DNA from: a virus
Taxonomy: Duplodnaviria > Heunggongvirae > Uroviricota > Caudoviricetes
DNA length: 64,000 bases
IMG/VR virus record: IMGVR_UViG_2721755756_000002
Strand: one strand, 5' to 3'
Positions 5,775 through 34,716 of the stretch are shown here, in pieces. The notes beneath the pieces are model-generated. The model was not told where the DNA came from. It did no database searches and was given only the letters and a program-made list of their open reading frames with translations. The first letter of the stretch is position 1; each line of letters begins with the position of its first letter. The position numbers and the translations under genes were made by a program.

Positions 5775-6509
5775 ATGAATGGTTTGGATTTTGGAATTCA
5801 AAAAATGACAGAACGCTTTTTTTCAGGAATGGGTTCATGTCTTTGTTACAAAAATGAAAGTGGTAAATTTTCTGTTCTAGTATTAACAGAAACGGTACCG
5901 GCTTTTGCTTCAACACCTGAAGCTATTGAAGCAAAATATACTACTTCTGATACAACGACAAAAATCGAGGGTATGAAAACATTGGAGGACAAGGAATTTG
6001 AATTTTTTGTTCACCGTGATTCAATCAATCGTTTAGAGAAACTTAAAGGGAAAGAATTAGAATTACTGCGTGTTAACGCTGATCTAACTGGTGAACGTGT
6101 CAATGGTACATTGTCTTATACTATGTCTGATAGTCAGAATGGCGAAGCTCAAAAAGGTAATATCAAGATTACTCCTACGGACTATATTGGTTATGTTGAG
6201 AATGTATTACCTCTGGTACAGGCTACTGTCACCTTTAAAACACCGATTGATTGGAAATGTGAGTTGGATAAAACGGATGGTACGTATACAAAGGATATCG
6301 AATTGAATTTTGCCGAAGGAACATTCACAGCTACAGTAAAAGATTCAACTATTGCTACAGCTGCTGTTTCAGATAATAAATTGACAATCACAGGTAAGGC
6401 AGAAGGCTCTACGATTGTTACCCTGAAAGCTTCTTGTGAAGGTTATGCATCATGGGAAACTACAATCTTAGTTATCGTTCCAAAGGCAGTCGTAGCACCT
6501 GGATCGTAA
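5775..6509 (+). CDS. Major tail protein with C-terminal Ig-like domain
   Basis: Tail-tube N-terminus; C-terminal IATAAVSDNKLTITGKAEGSTIVT resembles a Big_2 Ig fold. Confidence 0.8.
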   Translation: MNGLDFGIQKMTERFFSGMGSCLCYKNESGKFSVLVLTETVPAFASTPEAIEAKYTTSDTTTKIEGMKTLEDKEFEFFVHRDSINRLEKLKGKELELLRVNADLTGERVNGTLSYTMSDSQNGEAQKGNIKITPTDYIGYVENVLPLVQATVTFKTPIDWKCELDKTDGTYTKDIELNFAEGTFTATVKDSTIATAAVSDNKLTITGKAEGSTIVTLKASCEGYASWETTILVIVPKAVVAPGS

Positions 6510-20610: not shown

Positions 20611-21177
20611 ATGATATACATCATTATAATAAGCTTGATTATAATTATTGTTCCGCCTATTTTTATAATACTCAGTAATTTAGATTATAGGAAAACGATT
20701 ATAAGTGAATGTTCACAAGTTTACGGTATAGAATTAAATACCATAAGTGTAAAATATACAATATTAGAAGACAGGGTAGCTAAATATCCTATGATGAATA
20801 AAGAAATAAAAAGACTCATCAAACTGGAAAAAGATAAATATGTAGATATAAATAAGCTAGTAGTTGGTAAATTTAAAATATCTGATTTGGTACCTTTGTG
20901 TAAAAGTATACAGTTGTTTAATGAAATTGAAGAGTGTAAGGATAAGGGCGTTATTGATTTATTTGATGATGTGAGAGAAATGAATCATAAGATAGCAACA
21001 GTAAGGTCGCCTTTAAAATGCAAGATTAATGGTATGAAATCAAAAATACAATTCTTTATTATATTGATTATAGTTAAGCTATTTAACAAATTTAAGGATT
21101 TTACCCGGCAAGATATAGAACAAGTTGAGAAAGATAACGATTTTACAGTTGATTCAAATTTAGGTTTACTTAATTAG
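20611..21177 (+). CDS. Moron membrane protein
   Basis: 188 aa, very AT-rich, hydrophobic segments near both ends; RBS GGAGGGG. Confidence 0.65.
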   Translation: MIYIIIISLIIIIVPPIFIILSNLDYRKTIISECSQVYGIELNTISVKYTILEDRVAKYPMMNKEIKRLIKLEKDKYVDINKLVVGKFKISDLVPLCKSIQLFNEIEECKDKGVIDLFDDVREMNHKIATVRSPLKCKINGMKSKIQFFIILIIVKLFNKFKDFTRQDIEQVEKDNDFTVDSNLGLLN

Positions 21178-21206
21178 CTACTCTCCACACAAGAGAGTGG
21201 CTTTTT

Positions 21207-22992
21207 GGCTATCCAAATTTTTTAGGGGTTTTCGCCAGAAATTTGGGGGTCAACTTTGGGGGAGAGAAAAAATAAAGGCTAAAAATTAAGACCCCTAAAG
21301 TTAAAATCAAGAGAATCAGTGAAAAAACATTCTGATTCTCTTTTTTTGGTTATGCTTCTGTACAAATTCTTAATCTCTTTATTCTTTTACTTTATATTTA
21401 CCACGTTTCTTTCCAACATAGCTATGTACTTCATTAGATGATTTGGGCGTATTTCTCAATGCAGGTCTATTTCTGGTAGACCATAAGATTCGATTTCTAG
21501 TATAATTAAAATTAGAGGAACCTCGTGAGTTTCTCTTATAATCTTTCGGCTTTCGGTTGAATGATTCCATAGGTCCATTGGATAAACGTGCATAGTAACG
21601 CTCATTATCCTTTGCACTACGTCTTGATACCTCAGTTATAGTAAATGAGCGGGCAATCTCATGCTTATATTTATCAAGGTATTGTGAGAAAAGACAAGGA
21701 ATGTAACCTCTGAGAGCCTTAAATTCTTCAATCATTTTTAATAATTCTTGCATTACTTCATCTTCAGAACTAAAGTGAGTATTATTGAATCTAATATATT
21801 TTTCTTTCACATCTCTGATTATATTGAACTTAGGATCTAGTGAGAGAAATAGTTTTTCAATAGTATATGTATCTGCGTACATTCTAAGAGAGCTGTGGTA
21901 ATACCTTTTGTCAGAGTAATTGATATTGTCTTGATTCTTCAAAAGCACCCAGCGATATTTTCTAAGCAAGATAACTTCTTGTGATTCCTGAATCGTTTTA
22001 TTGTCTCTATTGGTGTCATGATTTTGTTTTTCAAGCCTTTTAAGATCTCTATCTTTATATGCTTTCATTACTGAATTGATATAAGTATTAATCAATCCTA
22101 ATAAATATTTAACAACATGAAAACTATCTAAAATCGACACAGCATTTGGAAAGAAATGCTTGGGTAATTCAAGATAAGGCTTATATGCATCAGAAATAAT
22201 ATAACGAACATGTTTTCTTTCTTCGTATGGAATGGAGAAGAAGTAGTTTTCAATGGTATGATGCCATCGGTTATGCAAGATGTCAACAATCTCTCCAGAA
22301 GTAAAGTCCATAAGAATCAAGGCATATTTCTCTTTTTCAGAAATATCAATATGTACTTCATCAACGGAAAGAAACTCAGGAAGAGTTAAACGTGGCAAAT
22401 CCACGTAAGCAGTGAAAAGATCGTGAACTTGAGTATCAGATAAATTGAATTGTCTGGCAATAGATGCGGTAGAACGATCAAGGTCTTTCATAGCCTCTAA
22501 AACTAGTAGAGGAGTAATATCAGAGGATTGTTTATAACGCTGAAAGAATGGGAAATCTTCATTAACATATGTGGAACAGTTAGTGCATTTCCACTTTCTT
22601 TGGCTCACGATAAAGATGATGCAAGTTCCGTCTTGTAAGACAGGGTGTTTGATTTTGCGCTTATAAATACCTTTTGAGTGCATTCTGCAAGAACAATTAG
22701 GGCAATAAGACGGGATAGATGGTCGAGAGATATATACATACTTGGTATCAGCGATGATTTCAACATCGTTGATGATAATAGAACCATCATCGGGAATGTT
22801 TAATAATTTAAATAGATAAGAATGATCCATGATTACCTCCTTCACAGAAGCATAACCAATAGAACATTATAGAAAAAGAAACAGATGAATGCCACCTGTT
22901 TCTTTTGGGATTTATCCCCCTAAAGTGTCCCTCAAAGTTCAGACCCCTAAATTGACCCCTAAAGTTTAGCCCCCCAAATATTTTGGATACCC
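21207..22992 (-). mobile_element. ISL3-family insertion sequence
   Basis: Imperfect terminal IRs (GGCTATCCAAA / GGGTATCCAAA); 8-bp target duplication GGCTTTTT at 21199-21206 and 22993-23000; subterminal CCCCTAAA repeats. Confidence 0.9.
21379..22845 (-). CDS. ISL3 transposase
   Basis: CPNC zinc finger, LSVDEV, DAYKPY, LDSFHVV and SNGPMESFN motifs. Confidence 0.92.
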   Translation of the reverse strand: MKEVIMDHSYLFKLLNIPDDGSIIINDVEIIADTKYVYISRPSIPSYCPNCSCRMHSKGIYKRKIKHPVLQDGTCIIFIVSQRKWKCTNCSTYVNEDFPFFQRYKQSSDITPLLVLEAMKDLDRSTASIARQFNLSDTQVHDLFTAYVDLPRLTLPEFLSVDEVHIDISEKEKYALILMDFTSGEIVDILHNRWHHTIENYFFSIPYEERKHVRYIISDAYKPYLELPKHFFPNAVSILDSFHVVKYLLGLINTYINSVMKAYKDRDLKRLEKQNHDTNRDNKTIQESQEVILLRKYRWVLLKNQDNINYSDKRYYHSSLRMYADTYTIEKLFLSLDPKFNIIRDVKEKYIRFNNTHFSSEDEVMQELLKMIEEFKALRGYIPCLFSQYLDKYKHEIARSFTITEVSRRSAKDNERYYARLSNGPMESFNRKPKDYKRNSRGSSNFNYTRNRILWSTRNRPALRNTPKSSNEVHSYVGKKRGKYKVKE

Positions 22993-23037
22993 GGCTTTTT
23001 TATTTACATTTCAACATATAAGTAGTATAGTATATAA

Positions 23038-23121
23038 GCAATCACTTAATGATTGTATCGCCCTTTTTCCCCCATTATTTGTTCATGAGGACGATAAGCC
23101 GGCTTTATGTCGGCTTTTTTT
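23038..23121 (+). ncRNA. sRNA cassette 1 (candidate)
   Basis: TTTACA-17-TATAGT (23003-23031); C/U-rich loop; terminator AAGCCGGC-TTTAT-GTCGGCTT-T5; no ORF. Confidence 0.6.
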
Positions 23122-23195
23122 GTTAAACATGGAACTTCCAATATTTTACTACGATAATGATTTGCAATTTTTGAAGAAATGCTATATAATTTCGT

Positions 23196-23260
23196 AGTCA
23201 CTCTTTCATACAGTTTATGCAGCGACAATGGGACAAAAGCCAGCTTATAGCCGGCTTTTT
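23196..23260 (+). ncRNA. sRNA cassette 2 (candidate)
   Basis: TTGCAA-17-TATAAT (23162-23190); terminator AAAAGCCAGC-TTATA-GCCGGCTTTTT. Confidence 0.6.
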
Positions 23261-23334
23261 ATTATCGGATTAAAATTAAGGAAAATTAAATAATTTAGAA
23301 TTTACATACGGAGGAAATATGATAGAATGATATT

Positions 23335-23416
23335 GGCATAATTATATGCTTCTGCCTAGGTATCTTTATGCTATCCATCTAAAAAGATGGGGAACCGGTT
23401 CTATACCGGTTTTTTT
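23335..23416 (+). ncRNA. sRNA cassette 3 (candidate)
   Basis: TTTACA-16-TAGAAT with TG extension (23301-23328); hairpins GCATA/TATGC and CCATCT/AGATGG; terminator AACCGGT/ACCGGTT-T-run. Confidence 0.55.
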
Positions 23417-23489
23417 GTAAAGTTTTATAACATTTAATAAAATAGTATCAATGTATTTACAAATAGTTGATTGAGGTATATAATGATTA

Positions 23490-23564
23490 CGTTGCCGCCC
23501 ATTAAAAAGAAAGGGATACCTAGGCAGTATTTTGCGGCACTTGACCACCTTAATGGTGGTTTTT
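23490..23564 (+). ncRNA. sRNA cassette 4 (candidate)
   Basis: TTTACA-17-TATAAT (23456-23484); TGCCGC/GCGGCA closing stem; terminator ACCACC/GGTGGT-TTTT. Confidence 0.6.
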
Positions 23565-23577
23565 CATTTATTTTATA

Positions 23578-23603
23578 AAAAATCCCGTATTTGATGATTT
23601 ATT
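23578..23603 (+). promoter_or_regulatory. 26-bp box upstream of shared sRNA, copy 1
   Basis: AAAAATCCCGTATTTGATGATTTATT, identical to the reverse complement of 34467-34492. Confidence 0.7.
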
Positions 23604-23638
23604 TACCTTTTTAAATTTTTATGTGAGATAATGTGCAC

Positions 23639-23728
23639 AGCAGCACAGATATCTTACTCTCCCCCCAAGTCCGTATCATATCTTCTTCCTAGCTGCCAGC
23701 TCCTGTCTATGTGCAGGAGTCTTTTTTT
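23639..23728 (+). ncRNA. sRNA cassette 5, shared between the two prophages (copy 1)
   Basis: GCAGCA.AGATATCTTACT...CCCAA.TCCGTATCATATCTTCTTCCTAGCTG plus terminator CTCCTG/CAGGAG-T-run; homologue at 34346-34431. Confidence 0.7.
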
Positions 23729-23990
23729 ATGGTCTTAAGCTCTCAATAAACCATCTATATTTATAAGGTGGCATATATTCATAGTATATAGTTCGAGTTG
23801 CTCCATTTATTTGTATCACAAACATTTGACCACCGCCGCCACAGTTTTTGCTATGGCATTGTGGTTTATGACGTATGATCTTGTCTATTTCATAGCGTTC
23901 GTCGTTCCAGATAACCGCAAGGGGCGTAATGTCTCCCATTTTATTAACGAGCATAACAACATCTATATATTTTTTATACAGGCGCTGCAT
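23727..23990 (-). CDS. Small protein resembling the family usually found beside Y-family (DinB/UmuC) polymerases
   Basis: KKYIDV..GDITPLAVIWNDERYEIDKI..GGGG..RWFIE pattern; RBS GAGGTGA. Confidence 0.55.
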   Translation of the reverse strand: MQRLYKKYIDVVMLVNKMGDITPLAVIWNDERYEIDKIIRHKPQCHSKNCGGGGQMFVIQINGATRTIYYEYMPPYKYRWFIESLRP

Positions 23991-24091
23991 TTGATCACCT
24001 CATTGTTTATGATGAACAGCTTTTACCATATTATACCAATGAAAAAATTCTACATCGTATATTACAATTAGTGTAACAGATAAGACTTGAG

Positions 24092-24403
24092 GTGAGAATT
24101 TTGAAGTTGAGAAAAAATATTGCATGGAATATATTATGCAACGCAAGACTTAAAATGCTTGTTAATGGTGATATAAGTGTGGAAAAGGCTGCATCTATCA
24201 TTTTTGATACAGAAAAACTCTTCACGGATGTAATCCAGAATATGGAGACCATGAGCATAGCTGAATATAATAACAAACGTATCATATTCGATGATGGCCG
24301 CCGTCTGTACTATAATGATTTCAATGCAGCTTTTTTAAACGGTGATATCCTGTATTTGTGTGGCAGCAGGAAAACCTATGTGTTTTACGTATATACGAAG
24401 TAG
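24092..24403 (+). CDS. Hypothetical protein
   Basis: 103 aa ORF with RBS GAGG, GTG start. Confidence 0.5.
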   Translation: MRILKLRKNIAWNILCNARLKMLVNGDISVEKAASIIFDTEKLFTDVIQNMETMSIAEYNNKRIIFDDGRRLYYNDFNAAFLNGDILYLCGSRKTYVFYVYTK

Positions 24404-24671
24404 TACCCCCTGTTTATTACCTCATGTTATCCGATAACATTATAACATATAATCGTTAATAGCAATGCTTTTTCGTACTAAGTGGATGCTTTTTCCTCAT
24501 TTATCGGATAGTTTCAAATTTTTTATAAAACAATCAAGTTATAGGGTAAATATACCAATTTTTACCAATTTGTGATATTATCTTTATTTTTTAGCAAAAT
24601 ATGGTAATATTTAATTGCTGATATATATTAAGCATCTCATGTTATCCAAAACAGAAAAAGGAGATGCAATC

Positions 24672-24836
24672 ATGAATATCGTTAAATTAAATAGAAAGAT
24701 CAAGGGGATAAGTGTATCAGATTTAGCAAAGGAGTTAGGGATGCCATTATTGCTGTACATATTTCATGAAAGGCGTATGGACTTCACAGTTGAACAATTC
24801 CGAATGCTTTGTGGTTTATTAAATATACTGTATTGA
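24672..24836 (+). CDS. Small XRE-type HTH protein
   Basis: RKIKGISVSDLAKELGM helix-turn-helix pattern; RBS AAAGGAG. Confidence 0.7.
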   Translation: MNIVKLNRKIKGISVSDLAKELGMPLLLYIFHERRMDFTVEQFRMLCGLLNILY

Positions 24837-24854
24837 TGTATCTAATATGAAGTG

Positions 24855-24883
24855 AAAAATGGTGAGCAATCACCATTTTTTTT
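24855..24883 (+). terminator. Rho-independent terminator
   Basis: AAAAATGGTGA-GCAA-TCACCATTTTT followed by T-run. Confidence 0.75.
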
Positions 24884-25127
24884 GTTATAATATCTGTAAT
24901 AAATTGTTAACATATATAATGTATATAATGCTTATAATAATCAAGCAAAAACATATAATCTAACAAATAAGCTAACAAAAATACCGATAATCCCATAAAT
25001 AAAGGATAAATTTTAACAAAATTATAACATTTCCTGTTTATCTTTTCTTTATAATGGAAACGAAGGAGGATAGCATTCACAGGCATAAAACCTCACGCAC
25101 AAACGTATTTTGTATAGAGGTGAGAGT

Positions 25128-25328
25128 ATGCTTTCCATAGATAAGAATCAGGTCATGATTGAACATTACCGGGAACTGACCCTGGTGAGCGAAACGAGAA
25201 TACAGGTGACGATGAAATCCTACCGTATCACGATAGACGGGGAGCAGCTGCATGTGCTGGCACTGGGAAAGGATGAGATCCTGCTGGAGGGCAGTGTGCA
25301 GAATCTGGCGTTCGCATATGAAAAATAG
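25128..25328 (+). CDS. yqfC: YabP/YqfC-family sporulation protein
   Basis: IEHYRELTLVSE..EILLEG motif; upstream of yqfD-phoH as in Bacillus; RBS GAGGTGA. Confidence 0.75.
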   Translation: MLSIDKNQVMIEHYRELTLVSETRIQVTMKSYRITIDGEQLHVLALGKDEILLEGSVQNLAFAYEK

Positions 25329-26244
25329 AAAGGGTTTCGGTCTTGATCAATGGAAAGTGCAGGCCTCTTGCGATGAGTTTTTATGGATTATAAAGAAAAA
25401 TCAGCTGGAACTATATGATATTACTCTACATCGAAACTATATTCAGTTCTACGCATCCATTCTGCAGCGCCCGAAAATCTACCGCTGCTTTGAAGCATGT
25501 GATCTGATCACAACCACCGGTATGCTGGGATATGCACTGCGCAGCCTGAAAAAGCCCTATCGCGTTGCGGCAATTCTGCTTTCTATCCTGCTGTGGTACG
25601 GTCTTTCGTCCATGGTATTTGAAATACAAATCAAGGGAGAAAAGGATGAAAGCCGGAAGCTGATTGCGGATACCCTGAAAAAACTGGAGGTTGTACCACC
25701 CTTTAAAAGCAGGGATGTCTCACAGCTGAAGGCACAGCTGAAAAAGAATCTGGAAAATGATATCGCCTGGCTGGAAATCGAGAAACAGGGCAGCCGGTAT
25801 CTGATTACCTATACGCCAAAGGAATTTGCCTCCTTATCCCAGCTGGGACATGAAGAGCTGATTGCACAGGAGGACGGTATGATTGAGCGCTTTGATATAC
25901 AGCATGGAAACAAGCTGCACAAGGTCAATGAATTTGTGCATAAGGGTGATGTGCTGGTAAGCAATGTGCTGGAGGATTCCAAGGGCGGCAAGCAGGAGGT
26001 ATATGTCAAGGGACGTGTCTTTGCCTATGTCTGGAAGGATATCACCGTGACGATGGACAAGACAAGGGAACCGAAGGCCTTTCAGTATTTTCAGCTGCTG
26101 TTTGATGCCAGACGCAAGGTGAGCGAGGACTTTCACAAGGACGATCGCATTTACAAGGAAAATATTTTGCAATTCTCTACAGATATGGGTAAAATAAAGA
26201 TGGTGATTCATTACACACTGATCAAGGACATCACCACACCATAA
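25318..26244 (+). CDS. yqfD: Sporulation protein YqfD
   Basis: IAWLEIEKQGSRY, ELIAQEDGMI and VHKGDVLVS motifs; yqfC-yqfD-phoH synteny. Confidence 0.85.
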   Translation: MKNRKGFGLDQWKVQASCDEFLWIIKKNQLELYDITLHRNYIQFYASILQRPKIYRCFEACDLITTTGMLGYALRSLKKPYRVAAILLSILLWYGLSSMVFEIQIKGEKDESRKLIADTLKKLEVVPPFKSRDVSQLKAQLKKNLENDIAWLEIEKQGSRYLITYTPKEFASLSQLGHEELIAQEDGMIERFDIQHGNKLHKVNEFVHKGDVLVSNVLEDSKGGKQEVYVKGRVFAYVWKDITVTMDKTREPKAFQYFQLLFDARRKVSEDFHKDDRIYKENILQFSTDMGKIKMVIHYTLIKDITTP

Positions 26245-26259
26245 CGATAAGGAGCGCCT

Positions 26260-34345: not shown

Positions 34346-34431
34346 AAAAAAATCCCACCAAAGGTGGGAAGTGACAGCTAGGAAGAAGATATGATACGGA
34401 TTTGGGTGTTAAGTAAGATATCTTTGCTGCC
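34346..34431 (-). ncRNA. Shared prophage sRNA, copy 2
   Basis: Homologous to 23639-23728; different terminator (TCCCACC/GGTGGGA followed by T7). Confidence 0.7.
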
Positions 34432-34466
34432 ATAAACATTATTGCACAAAATTCAATGAGGTGGGG

Positions 34467-34492
34467 AATAAATCATCAAATACGGGATTTTT
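34467..34492 (-). promoter_or_regulatory. 26-bp box upstream of shared sRNA, copy 2
   Basis: Identical to 23578-23603, with the same 18-nt spacing to TGTGnnATAAT. Confidence 0.7.
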
Positions 34493-34505: not shown

Positions 34506-34676
34506 AAAAAAAGGAACGACCGTCCTTTTTCTAAAATCCATTATGATAATTTGTTCTTTTGATCCACTAGTTCCAAAGAGCTAGTCTGCTTCTACCAACG
34601 GCGATATGTAGACTTGTATATTTTAGATCTACAGAACCTCAATAGAGGTTACTGACACTGGATACGCTTATCCTAT
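34506..34676 (-). ncRNA. ~170-nt multi-hairpin ncRNA (candidate)
   Basis: TTGCAT-17-TATAAT promoter (34711-34683); hairpins GGATA/TATCC, AACCTC/GAGGTT, TGTAGA/TCTACA, CTAG/CTAG; terminator AAAAAGGA/TCCTTTTT. Confidence 0.6.
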
Positions 34677-34716
34677 GTACACATTATATATCAACGGAGA
34701 AAAATATGCAATACAC

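Follow-up and report, generated by a model that had tools for sequence, protein, structure and literature searches.

An array of five candidate small RNA genes in a Clostridium innocuum prophage, with a complementary pair of units and a chromosomal paralogue

The DNA analysed (the window) is a stretch of 64,000 nucleotides from the Caudoviricetes virus record IMGVR_UViG_2721755756_000002. The subject is an array of five predicted small RNA (sRNA) genes, units 1-5 (U1-U5), located at 23003-23728 (~730 bp) at the right end of prophage 1, 1.3-2 kb inside attR. The host DNA of the window is that of Clostridium innocuum I46: locus L037 from CP022722.1, the sequence of this strain (PMC5646386), is 100% identical to window positions 23260-26259; by extrapolation from this locus, window 23000-23730 would lie at about 737,150-737,880 of CP022722.1. 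Fetched loci are referred to by L numbers, and coordinates are collected in Table 1.

All five promoter-body-terminator units of a preliminary description of this DNA were recovered by promoter and terminator scans and by folding. The promoters of units 1-4 are near-consensus sigma-A promoters (scores of 10-11 out of 12), each followed after 65-85 nt by a G+C-rich hairpin with a T-tract; U5 has an extended -10 element, TGTGaGATAAT, of the Gram-positive TRTGn type. Six terminator-like sites were found in 3 kb in a first scan, compared with 1.3 +/- 1.1 in shuffled sequences, and three of the six lie inside the array; a second scan recovered the terminators of all five units. A stricter search for promoter-plus-terminator pairs on both strands of the 64 kb window gave ten pairs, consisting of units 1-4 consecutively, one tRNA-Glu gene and five pairs within coding regions. 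An individual promoter and intrinsic terminator around 50-300 nt, the build of a stand-alone sRNA gene of the Firmicutes type, was found in 5/5 units and in all alleles from relatives.

Each unit folds into a 5' hairpin with a 20-35 nt loop followed by the terminator, with z-scores against shuffled sequences of -4.6, -1.6, -4.5, -2.0 and -4.0 for units 1-5, respectively. U1 comprises a small 5' hairpin, a hairpin with the C/U-rich loop CCCUUUUUCCCCC and the terminator. The U2 loop, UCUUUCAUACAGUUUAUGCA, is U/C-rich without a C-run and is closed by the stem GUCAC/GCGAC. In U3 the loop motif CUGCCUAGGUAUC is carried on the stem GGCAUAA/UUAUGCU, with a small hairpin and the terminator downstream, while U4 has a 35-nt purine-rich loop that contains GAUACCUAGGCAG and is closed by the stem UGCCGC/GCGGCA. 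The C-rich apical loop of U5 lies within the stems GCAGC/GCUGC and AGAUAU/AUAUCU, between which CUUCUUCCUA forms an asymmetric bulge; the invariant segment of U5 is the complement of an idealised AGGAAG-N5-AUG start region. The C/U-rich loops previously reported for units 1, 2 and 5 are real. The bodies had been described as different sequences that do not form a repeat array; they are indeed unrelated, but units 1, 2 and 3 share a terminator family (D1). With Rfam 15 the units gave only sub-threshold chance matches, mostly to terminators (AgrB, STnc430), and ARAGORN found no tRNA in the array.

Table 1. Positions of the array units, the chromosomal paralogue and other features (window coordinates unless a locus is named)
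Feature	Position	Strand	Details
Unit 1 (U1)	23003-23121	+	promoter TTTACA-17-TATAGT 23003-23031; predicted RNA ~23038-23121; terminator 23096-23116
Unit 2 (U2)	23161-23262	+	promoter TTGCAA-17-TATAAT 23162-23190; predicted RNA ~23196-23262; terminator 23236-23258
Unit 3 (U3)	23301-23418	+	promoter TTTACA-16-TAGAAT with TG, 23301-23328; predicted RNA ~23335-23418; terminator 23392-23412
Unit 4 (U4)	23456-23566	+	promoter TTTACA-17-TATAAT 23456-23484; predicted RNA ~23490-23566; terminator 23543-23561
Unit 5 (U5)	23578-23728	+	26-bp box 23578-23603; extended -10 23622-23632; predicted RNA ~23639-23728; terminator 23699-23720
cU4	L022:7171-7248; L043-L048 ~6242-6318; L077-L086 at 10823		
188-aa gene and its terminator	20611-21208	+	function not assigned; adjoins unit 1 in uninterrupted phage
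ISL3-family insertion sequence	21209-22992	-	just upstream of unit 1, outside the array; 8-bp direct repeats GGCTTTTT at 21201-21208 and 22993-23000
attR of prophage 1 (approximate)	24995-25015	.	homology with prophage-free chromosome starts at 25011
Unit 5 paralogue in prophage 2	34346-34492	-	identical 26-bp box 34467-34492; different terminator

Related arrays and constraint on the predicted transcripts

When IMG/VR was scanned for exact words from the unit cores, 7 contigs were obtained with unit 5, 16 with unit 2 and 12 with unit 4. Units were found in ~20 IMG/VR proviruses, in one contig of a metagenome-assembled genome (MAG) and in at least eight assembly contigs, the last obtained from look-ups around host genes. 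All copies are from C. innocuum-type DNA and are 87-100% identical; the INPHARED phage collection contained no relative above promoter-like noise. The MAG, G001 (JBKTJB01, labelled Streptococcus sp.), carries a 99% identical array on contig C2 (217 kb). This contig also holds C. innocuum chromosome genes and a C. innocuum prophage, and the rest of G001 is unlike the host genes of the window (the phoH region is only 72% identical), so contig C2 may have been mis-binned.

The composition of the array varies between phages. The order U1-U2-U3-U4-U5 was found in the window and in L006, and in L009, L013, L022, L077 and similar loci U1-U2-U3-U4 is followed by small protein genes, a paralogue of unit 4 (U4b) and sometimes U5. 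Two further unit types of the same build, X1 and X2, the latter with a C-rich loop, occur in the arrays X1-U2-X2-U3'-U4 (L005 and L011), U2-X2-U3'-U4 (L010 and L015) and U2-X2-U3''-U4-ORF-U5 (L016); L017 reads U2-X2-U3''-U4 up to the end of the fetched locus. Shorter forms are U2-U3-U4 (L012 and L018) and U1 followed, after a gap of ~370 nt, by U2-X2-U3' (L008 and L019). Every unit in every array mapped has retained a promoter-like site and a terminator. L005-like phages have only the units in common with the window, not the flanking genes, and the gene directly upstream of the array differs between phages: a 188-aa protein, a Panacea antitoxin with its partner, PBECR2-DUF2283 or DUF3800. With shared units, unrelated flanks and varying compositions, the units are thus exchangeable cassettes in an accessory hotspot behind the lysis genes, and the expectation that homologues would occur in cassette arrays of varying order was borne out.

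No open reading frame (ORF) with a ribosome-binding site was found on the transcribed strand of any of the five units, in agreement with the preliminary description. Among relatives the C-run is 4, 5, 6 or 7 nt long in the U1 loop and 5 or 6 nt long in the U5 loop; any reading frame is therefore broken and coding is excluded. There is no conserved protein-coding frame, as in stand-alone sRNA genes. A mini-ORF starting from a Shine-Dalgarno-ATG combination in the unit 3 promoter (GGAGGAAATATGATAGAATGA) was rejected; it is missing in the homologous promoters of X2 and U3''.

The differences between alleles preserve the stems. The U2 stem is GUCAC/GUGAC in L006 (A-U) and GUCGC/GCGAC in L005 (G-C), a compensatory change for which the window provides the one-step intermediate, and the U2 terminator hairpin is found in both orientations among alleles. 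The closing stem of U4 has changed from G-C to A-U in U4b, and compensatory pairs are also present in the terminators of the U5, X1 and U3 alleles. The three U3 alleles (U3, U3' and U3'') have unrelated stems, promoters and terminators, and all keep the loop UGCCUAGGUAU. A structure maintained by compensatory change together with a conserved single-stranded seed is the pattern of an sRNA, although the number of independent events within this one species is small. With promoters, terminators and stems kept and frame-breaking insertions and deletions tolerated, the comparative data support the earlier proposal of modular, probably independently expressed sRNA genes in the position of morons (accessory cargo genes).

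Complementarity of U3 and U4 and a chromosomal paralogue

The motif CUGCCUAGGUAUC in the U3 loop (23352-23364) and GAUACCUAGGCAG in the U4 loop (23515-23527) are perfectly complementary. The probability of such a 13-mer arising by chance within 1 kb was estimated as <0.01. A 7-nt loop-loop contact, UGCCUAG/CUAGGCA, can be extended to 13-16 bp, and the U3-U4 duplex (-31.8 kcal/mol, compared with -20.2 +/- 3.9 for shuffled sequences) was the only one of the ten unit pairs to stand out. Differences in U3 and U4 between phages preserve or lengthen the pairing, which is 14 nt in L006, following a change from G-U to A-U, and 15 nt in L005. In the predicted folds of U3', U3'' and the U4 of L021 the motif is placed at the tip of an apical hairpin, UGCCUAG against CUAGGCA, which is the geometry of kissing-loop antisense pairs; in the folds of the window's own U3 and U4 it lies within a large loop. 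A U3-type unit immediately precedes U4 in every complete array except that of L021.

Two paralogues of unit 4 were identified; the preliminary description of the array had remarked neither on the chromosomal one nor on the U3-U4 complementarity. U4b (GAUAUCUAGGCAG) is located ~1 kb downstream in many phages. The other, cU4, is a predicted stand-alone sRNA gene in the C. innocuum chromosome, where it follows a PNPOx/ferredoxin gene and has an extended -10 promoter and a terminator of its own. It is 100% identical in all intact contigs examined, including the prophage-free L046-L048, L080 and L084, and is presumably expressed. The loop AGAAAGRGAUACCUAGGCA is common to U4 and cU4; their stems and terminators differ. 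A covariance model of the family recovered U4, U4b and cU4 with E values of 1e-24 to 1e-12. The U3 loop is complementary to cU4 over 12-13 nt and to U4 over 13-16 nt. Unit 4-type genes without a U3 partner are the U4 of L021, U4b and cU4.

No complementary site was present in the neighbourhood of cU4 except on its own antisense strand, and the motif TGCCTAGGTAT occurred nowhere else in G001 above the control level. A tRNA-like or rRNA-derived origin was rejected on the latter result and on that from ARAGORN. A scan of viral contigs for the junction GCGGCACTTGACCACC, which would reveal U4 scaffolds with other loops, returned only the known copies and unrelated high-GC chance matches. In L074 (Logan assembly, 2106-2500) the cU4 loop is interrupted, directly after ...CAAATAGAAA, by an element that carries a large serine recombinase (493 aa); the sRNA-like gene of that contig is therefore disrupted and acts as an attachment site.

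Interpretation and rival explanations

We consider it reasonably probable that the array is a modular moron cluster of base-pairing sRNA genes, among them an sRNA/anti-sRNA pair directed at a host sRNA seed. Near its right end a temperate C. innocuum phage would carry the five units as separate accessory genes, each producing from a housekeeping-type promoter an RNA of 65-90 nt that displays a loop and ends at a Rho-independent terminator. The RNAs would act through base pairing of their loops. C-rich loops directed against Shine-Dalgarno regions are found in the Firmicutes sRNAs RsaE, RoxS and LhrC, and the C-rich loops of U1, U5 and X2 may be of this kind. Because the U4 loop is shared with the stand-alone chromosomal gene, U4 and U4b would be phage copies of the cU4 seed. 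U3, as the complement of that seed, would therefore most likely act as an anti-sRNA or target mimic, as AgvB does against GcvB: it is a predicted prophage RNA complementary to the seed of a putative core-genome sRNA. The units would be exchanged by recombination, as cassettes, among otherwise unrelated phages. A bolder version, in which the phage carries a matched sRNA/anti-sRNA pair against a host regulon, with two promoters tuned to boost or silence the host sRNA circuit and with the array as an integron-like system for swapping regulatory RNAs, appears rather improbable.

Several results weigh against this interpretation. Searches for complementary exact words of at least 11 nt in the window and in two complete related proviruses gave nothing notable apart from U3-U4. 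RNAduplex comparisons with 711 translation-initiation regions of the fetched loci gave no convincing target; the best scores (z of -3 to -4) are those expected for extremes. The segment of U5 complementary to initiation regions matched only its own opposite strand in the fetched loci, and its pairing with the phoP start region (-25.4 kcal/mol, z of about -2.3) is not exceptional. The covariation rests on few independent events, since the copies are from one host species and are 87-100% identical. Finally, the conserved motif of U3, U4 and cU4 could be a site that acts at the DNA level, to which the insertion in L074 lends some weight.

This last possibility extends to the array as a whole. The inverted repeat CTGCCTAGGTATC...GATACCTAGGCAG might serve as an operator or as a site for a recombinase, as in an invertible promoter segment or an attachment-site mimic, and the promoter-terminator pairs might be insulators or the remains of decayed morons. 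The 13-bp inverted repeat does enclose 150 bp containing the unit 4 promoter, the serine-recombinase element of L074 lies inside the loop region of cU4, and a decayed, promoterless copy of unit 5 is present in L001, L004 and L005. However, only one orientation was seen in more than 20 copies examined, no invertase gene lies nearby and no recombinase gene is adjacent, which argues against an inverton; unit 4-type genes also exist without a U3 partner. The compensatory stems around the motif and the individual promoter and terminator of each diverged allele fit selection on a transcript and not on a protein-binding site. That these features are DNA-level elements and not RNA genes is decidedly unlikely. 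It is highly improbable that the units code for tiny proteins or are toxin-antitoxin pairs of type I, where a complementary sRNA checks the mRNA of a small hydrophobic toxin. The adjacent, separately transcribed (as predicted) U3 and U4, complementary over 13-16 nt, do resemble trans-encoded pairs of this type, and the strand opposite unit 5 has a good ribosome-binding site with an ATG. Yet the transcribed strands have no ORF with a ribosome-binding site, the frames that exist are disrupted by changes in homopolymer length, the frame opposite unit 5 has 22, 14 or 8 codons depending on the copy, and the reading frame of U3 is missing in U3''. A type I system, with a small hydrophobic toxin ORF and an antisense RNA, was rejected on this ORF evidence.

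A role in conflicts between mobile elements, or between phage and host defence, is unlikely. The RNAs would then be decoys for RNA-guided or RNA-antitoxin defence, or antisense RNAs against superinfecting phages, with U3 and U4 as an immunity pair. Such a role would suit an array that sits in a variable post-lysis hotspot beside changing toxin-antitoxin-like morons (L012, L017, L016 and L079), the existence of lysogens with two or more unit-bearing prophages, and complementary U3 and U4 sites on the same strand. Complementarity to the second prophage and to related phage genomes, however, did not exceed the chance level. The preliminary description had suggested orphan decoys of RNA antitoxins or anti-defence RNAs, a proposal that found no support: a ToxI or pseudo-ToxI decoy would have tandem direct repeats of ~36 nt and a ToxN-like endoribonuclease gene next to it or in the host, but the bodies have no internal repeats and no neighbour is ToxN-like. 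Nor was there a match to a CRISPR-repeat (CRISPR-DR) family that would indicate an RNA anti-CRISPR, the comparison being limited to Rfam families. A search for toxin neighbours had also been proposed, and Panacea, PBECR2/DUF2283 and DUF3800 genes do adjoin the array; which of them is present depends on the phage, whereas the RNA units persist, so the units have no fixed protein partner. The chromosomal cU4, moreover, suggests a link to host physiology and not to phage warfare.

An immunity function would have a parallel in the c4 RNA of phages P1 and P7 and the CI RNA of P4, which mediate immunity as antisense RNAs; in these systems one strand encodes the RNA and, in tandem, its target sites, and the two make contact by way of loops. 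The target forms part of an mRNA leader by which the genes downstream are controlled, and processing of that same transcript yields the RNA. U3 and U4 resemble them as a small structured RNA and a complementary site in tandem on one strand, but differ in that the partners are separately promoted and terminated and have no downstream ORF.

The layout, at first regarded as without a named precedent, combines elements that are known: prophage sRNA clusters and sibling sRNA arrays. The copies of LhrC are arranged in tandem, each with its own promoter and terminator, and pair with ribosome-binding sites through C-rich loops; they are homologous siblings in the core genome with one regulator. As in LhrC1-5, small genes with individual promoters and terminators follow one another here and C-rich single-stranded loops occur, but the present array consists of unrelated body families that are prophage-borne and exchanged as cassettes. 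LhrC1-5 of Listeria monocytogenes is a sibling sRNA array of the Firmicutes (PMC5880928). The Escherichia coli prophage sRNAs EcOnc01-03, AgvB and AsxR are encoded at moron positions (Tree et al., 2014; PMC4104026), and AgvB neutralizes the core-genome sRNA GcvB by target mimicry (PMC4104026). As in these sRNAs of enterohaemorrhagic E. coli, short sRNA genes (51-60 nt in E. coli) are found here at the moron insertion sites of temperate phages and make up groups of relatives that share the 3' part but differ in the seed, and U3 could work against cU4 and U4 by the same target mimicry as AgvB. There is no sequence or Rfam relationship between the two sets (no Rfam match at E values of up to 10, noise apart). 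The host here is a Gram-positive member of the Erysipelotrichia, while the E. coli RNAs are Hfq-bound. The present array of predicted genes differs further: its five unrelated bodies stand head to tail, and one phage carries U4, a copy of the seed, together with U3, which is complementary to it.

Genes for prophage sRNAs and anti-sRNAs, and sRNA genes in tandem arrays, are already known. What appears to be new is that unrelated cassettes stand in a row and are exchanged from one phage to another, that the phage bears a complementary pair and that the host has a paralogue; the RNA families, for which Rfam has no match, also appear to be new. C. innocuum is a common gut bacterium and an opportunist. 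A literature search made for this species, and not more widely for the class Erysipelotrichia, found no described sRNAs. If expressed, the array would provide the first candidate set of riboregulators for C. innocuum. It would also demonstrate an exchange of sRNA genes, in cassette form, between temperate phages of Gram-positive gut bacteria, and the complementarity of a phage RNA to the seed of a host sRNA could be put to a direct test. The OMM12 mouse community, which is in wide use, includes strain I46 (DSM 26113), whose prophages are induced in vivo (PMC10197239).

Neighbouring features and unit 5 copies

The genes upstream of the array are, in order, a CHAP lysin gene, an 87-aa gene and the 188-aa gene. 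The T-tract of the terminator that precedes unit 1 is interrupted by the ISL3-family element. L006, an otherwise identical provirus, lacks this element, so the insertion is recent; since the junction in L006 is uninterrupted, the array originally stood directly after the terminator of the 188-aa gene. The position of attR was obtained by comparison with prophage-free contigs. In other phages the slot between the lysis genes and the array contains toxin-antitoxin-like or defence-like genes: a Panacea antitoxin and its partner (L012:5084-5978 and L017:891-2331), a PBECR2 nuclease-like gene with DUF2283 (L016:1797-2364) and a DUF3800 gene with a 173-aa protein gene (L079:2109-3336).

The fifth unit had been assigned a boxed promoter. 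The 26-bp box is indeed identical in prophage 2, but in L016 (reverse strand, oriented 2690-2740) the 3' arm of a terminator hairpin, CGGGATTTTTAACAAGAAATCCCG, makes up its first half; this hairpin closes a 42-codon ORF upstream of unit 5. Instead of an operator, the box may be what is left of a terminator, together with DNA from upstream of the promoter. The promoters of U5 (window 23622-23636) and cU4 (L022:7146-7160) both read TGTG(A/T)GATAATGTGC, with a 14/15 match; this likeness could reflect the common TRTGn extended -10 element or a shared regulator site. Copies of unit 5 truncated at the 5' end and lacking a promoter were found at L005:3930-4030, L004:7219-7297 and L001:1057-1135. A deletion of ~55 nt has removed, among other sequence, their box, -10 element and 5' stem, and they are apparently decayed cassettes. 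In prophage 2 a non-coding stretch of ~170 nt from promoter to terminator (34506-34711, minus strand) lies directly upstream of the unit 5 copy; it follows the lysis genes of that prophage and forms a second post-lysis cluster of putative RNA genes.

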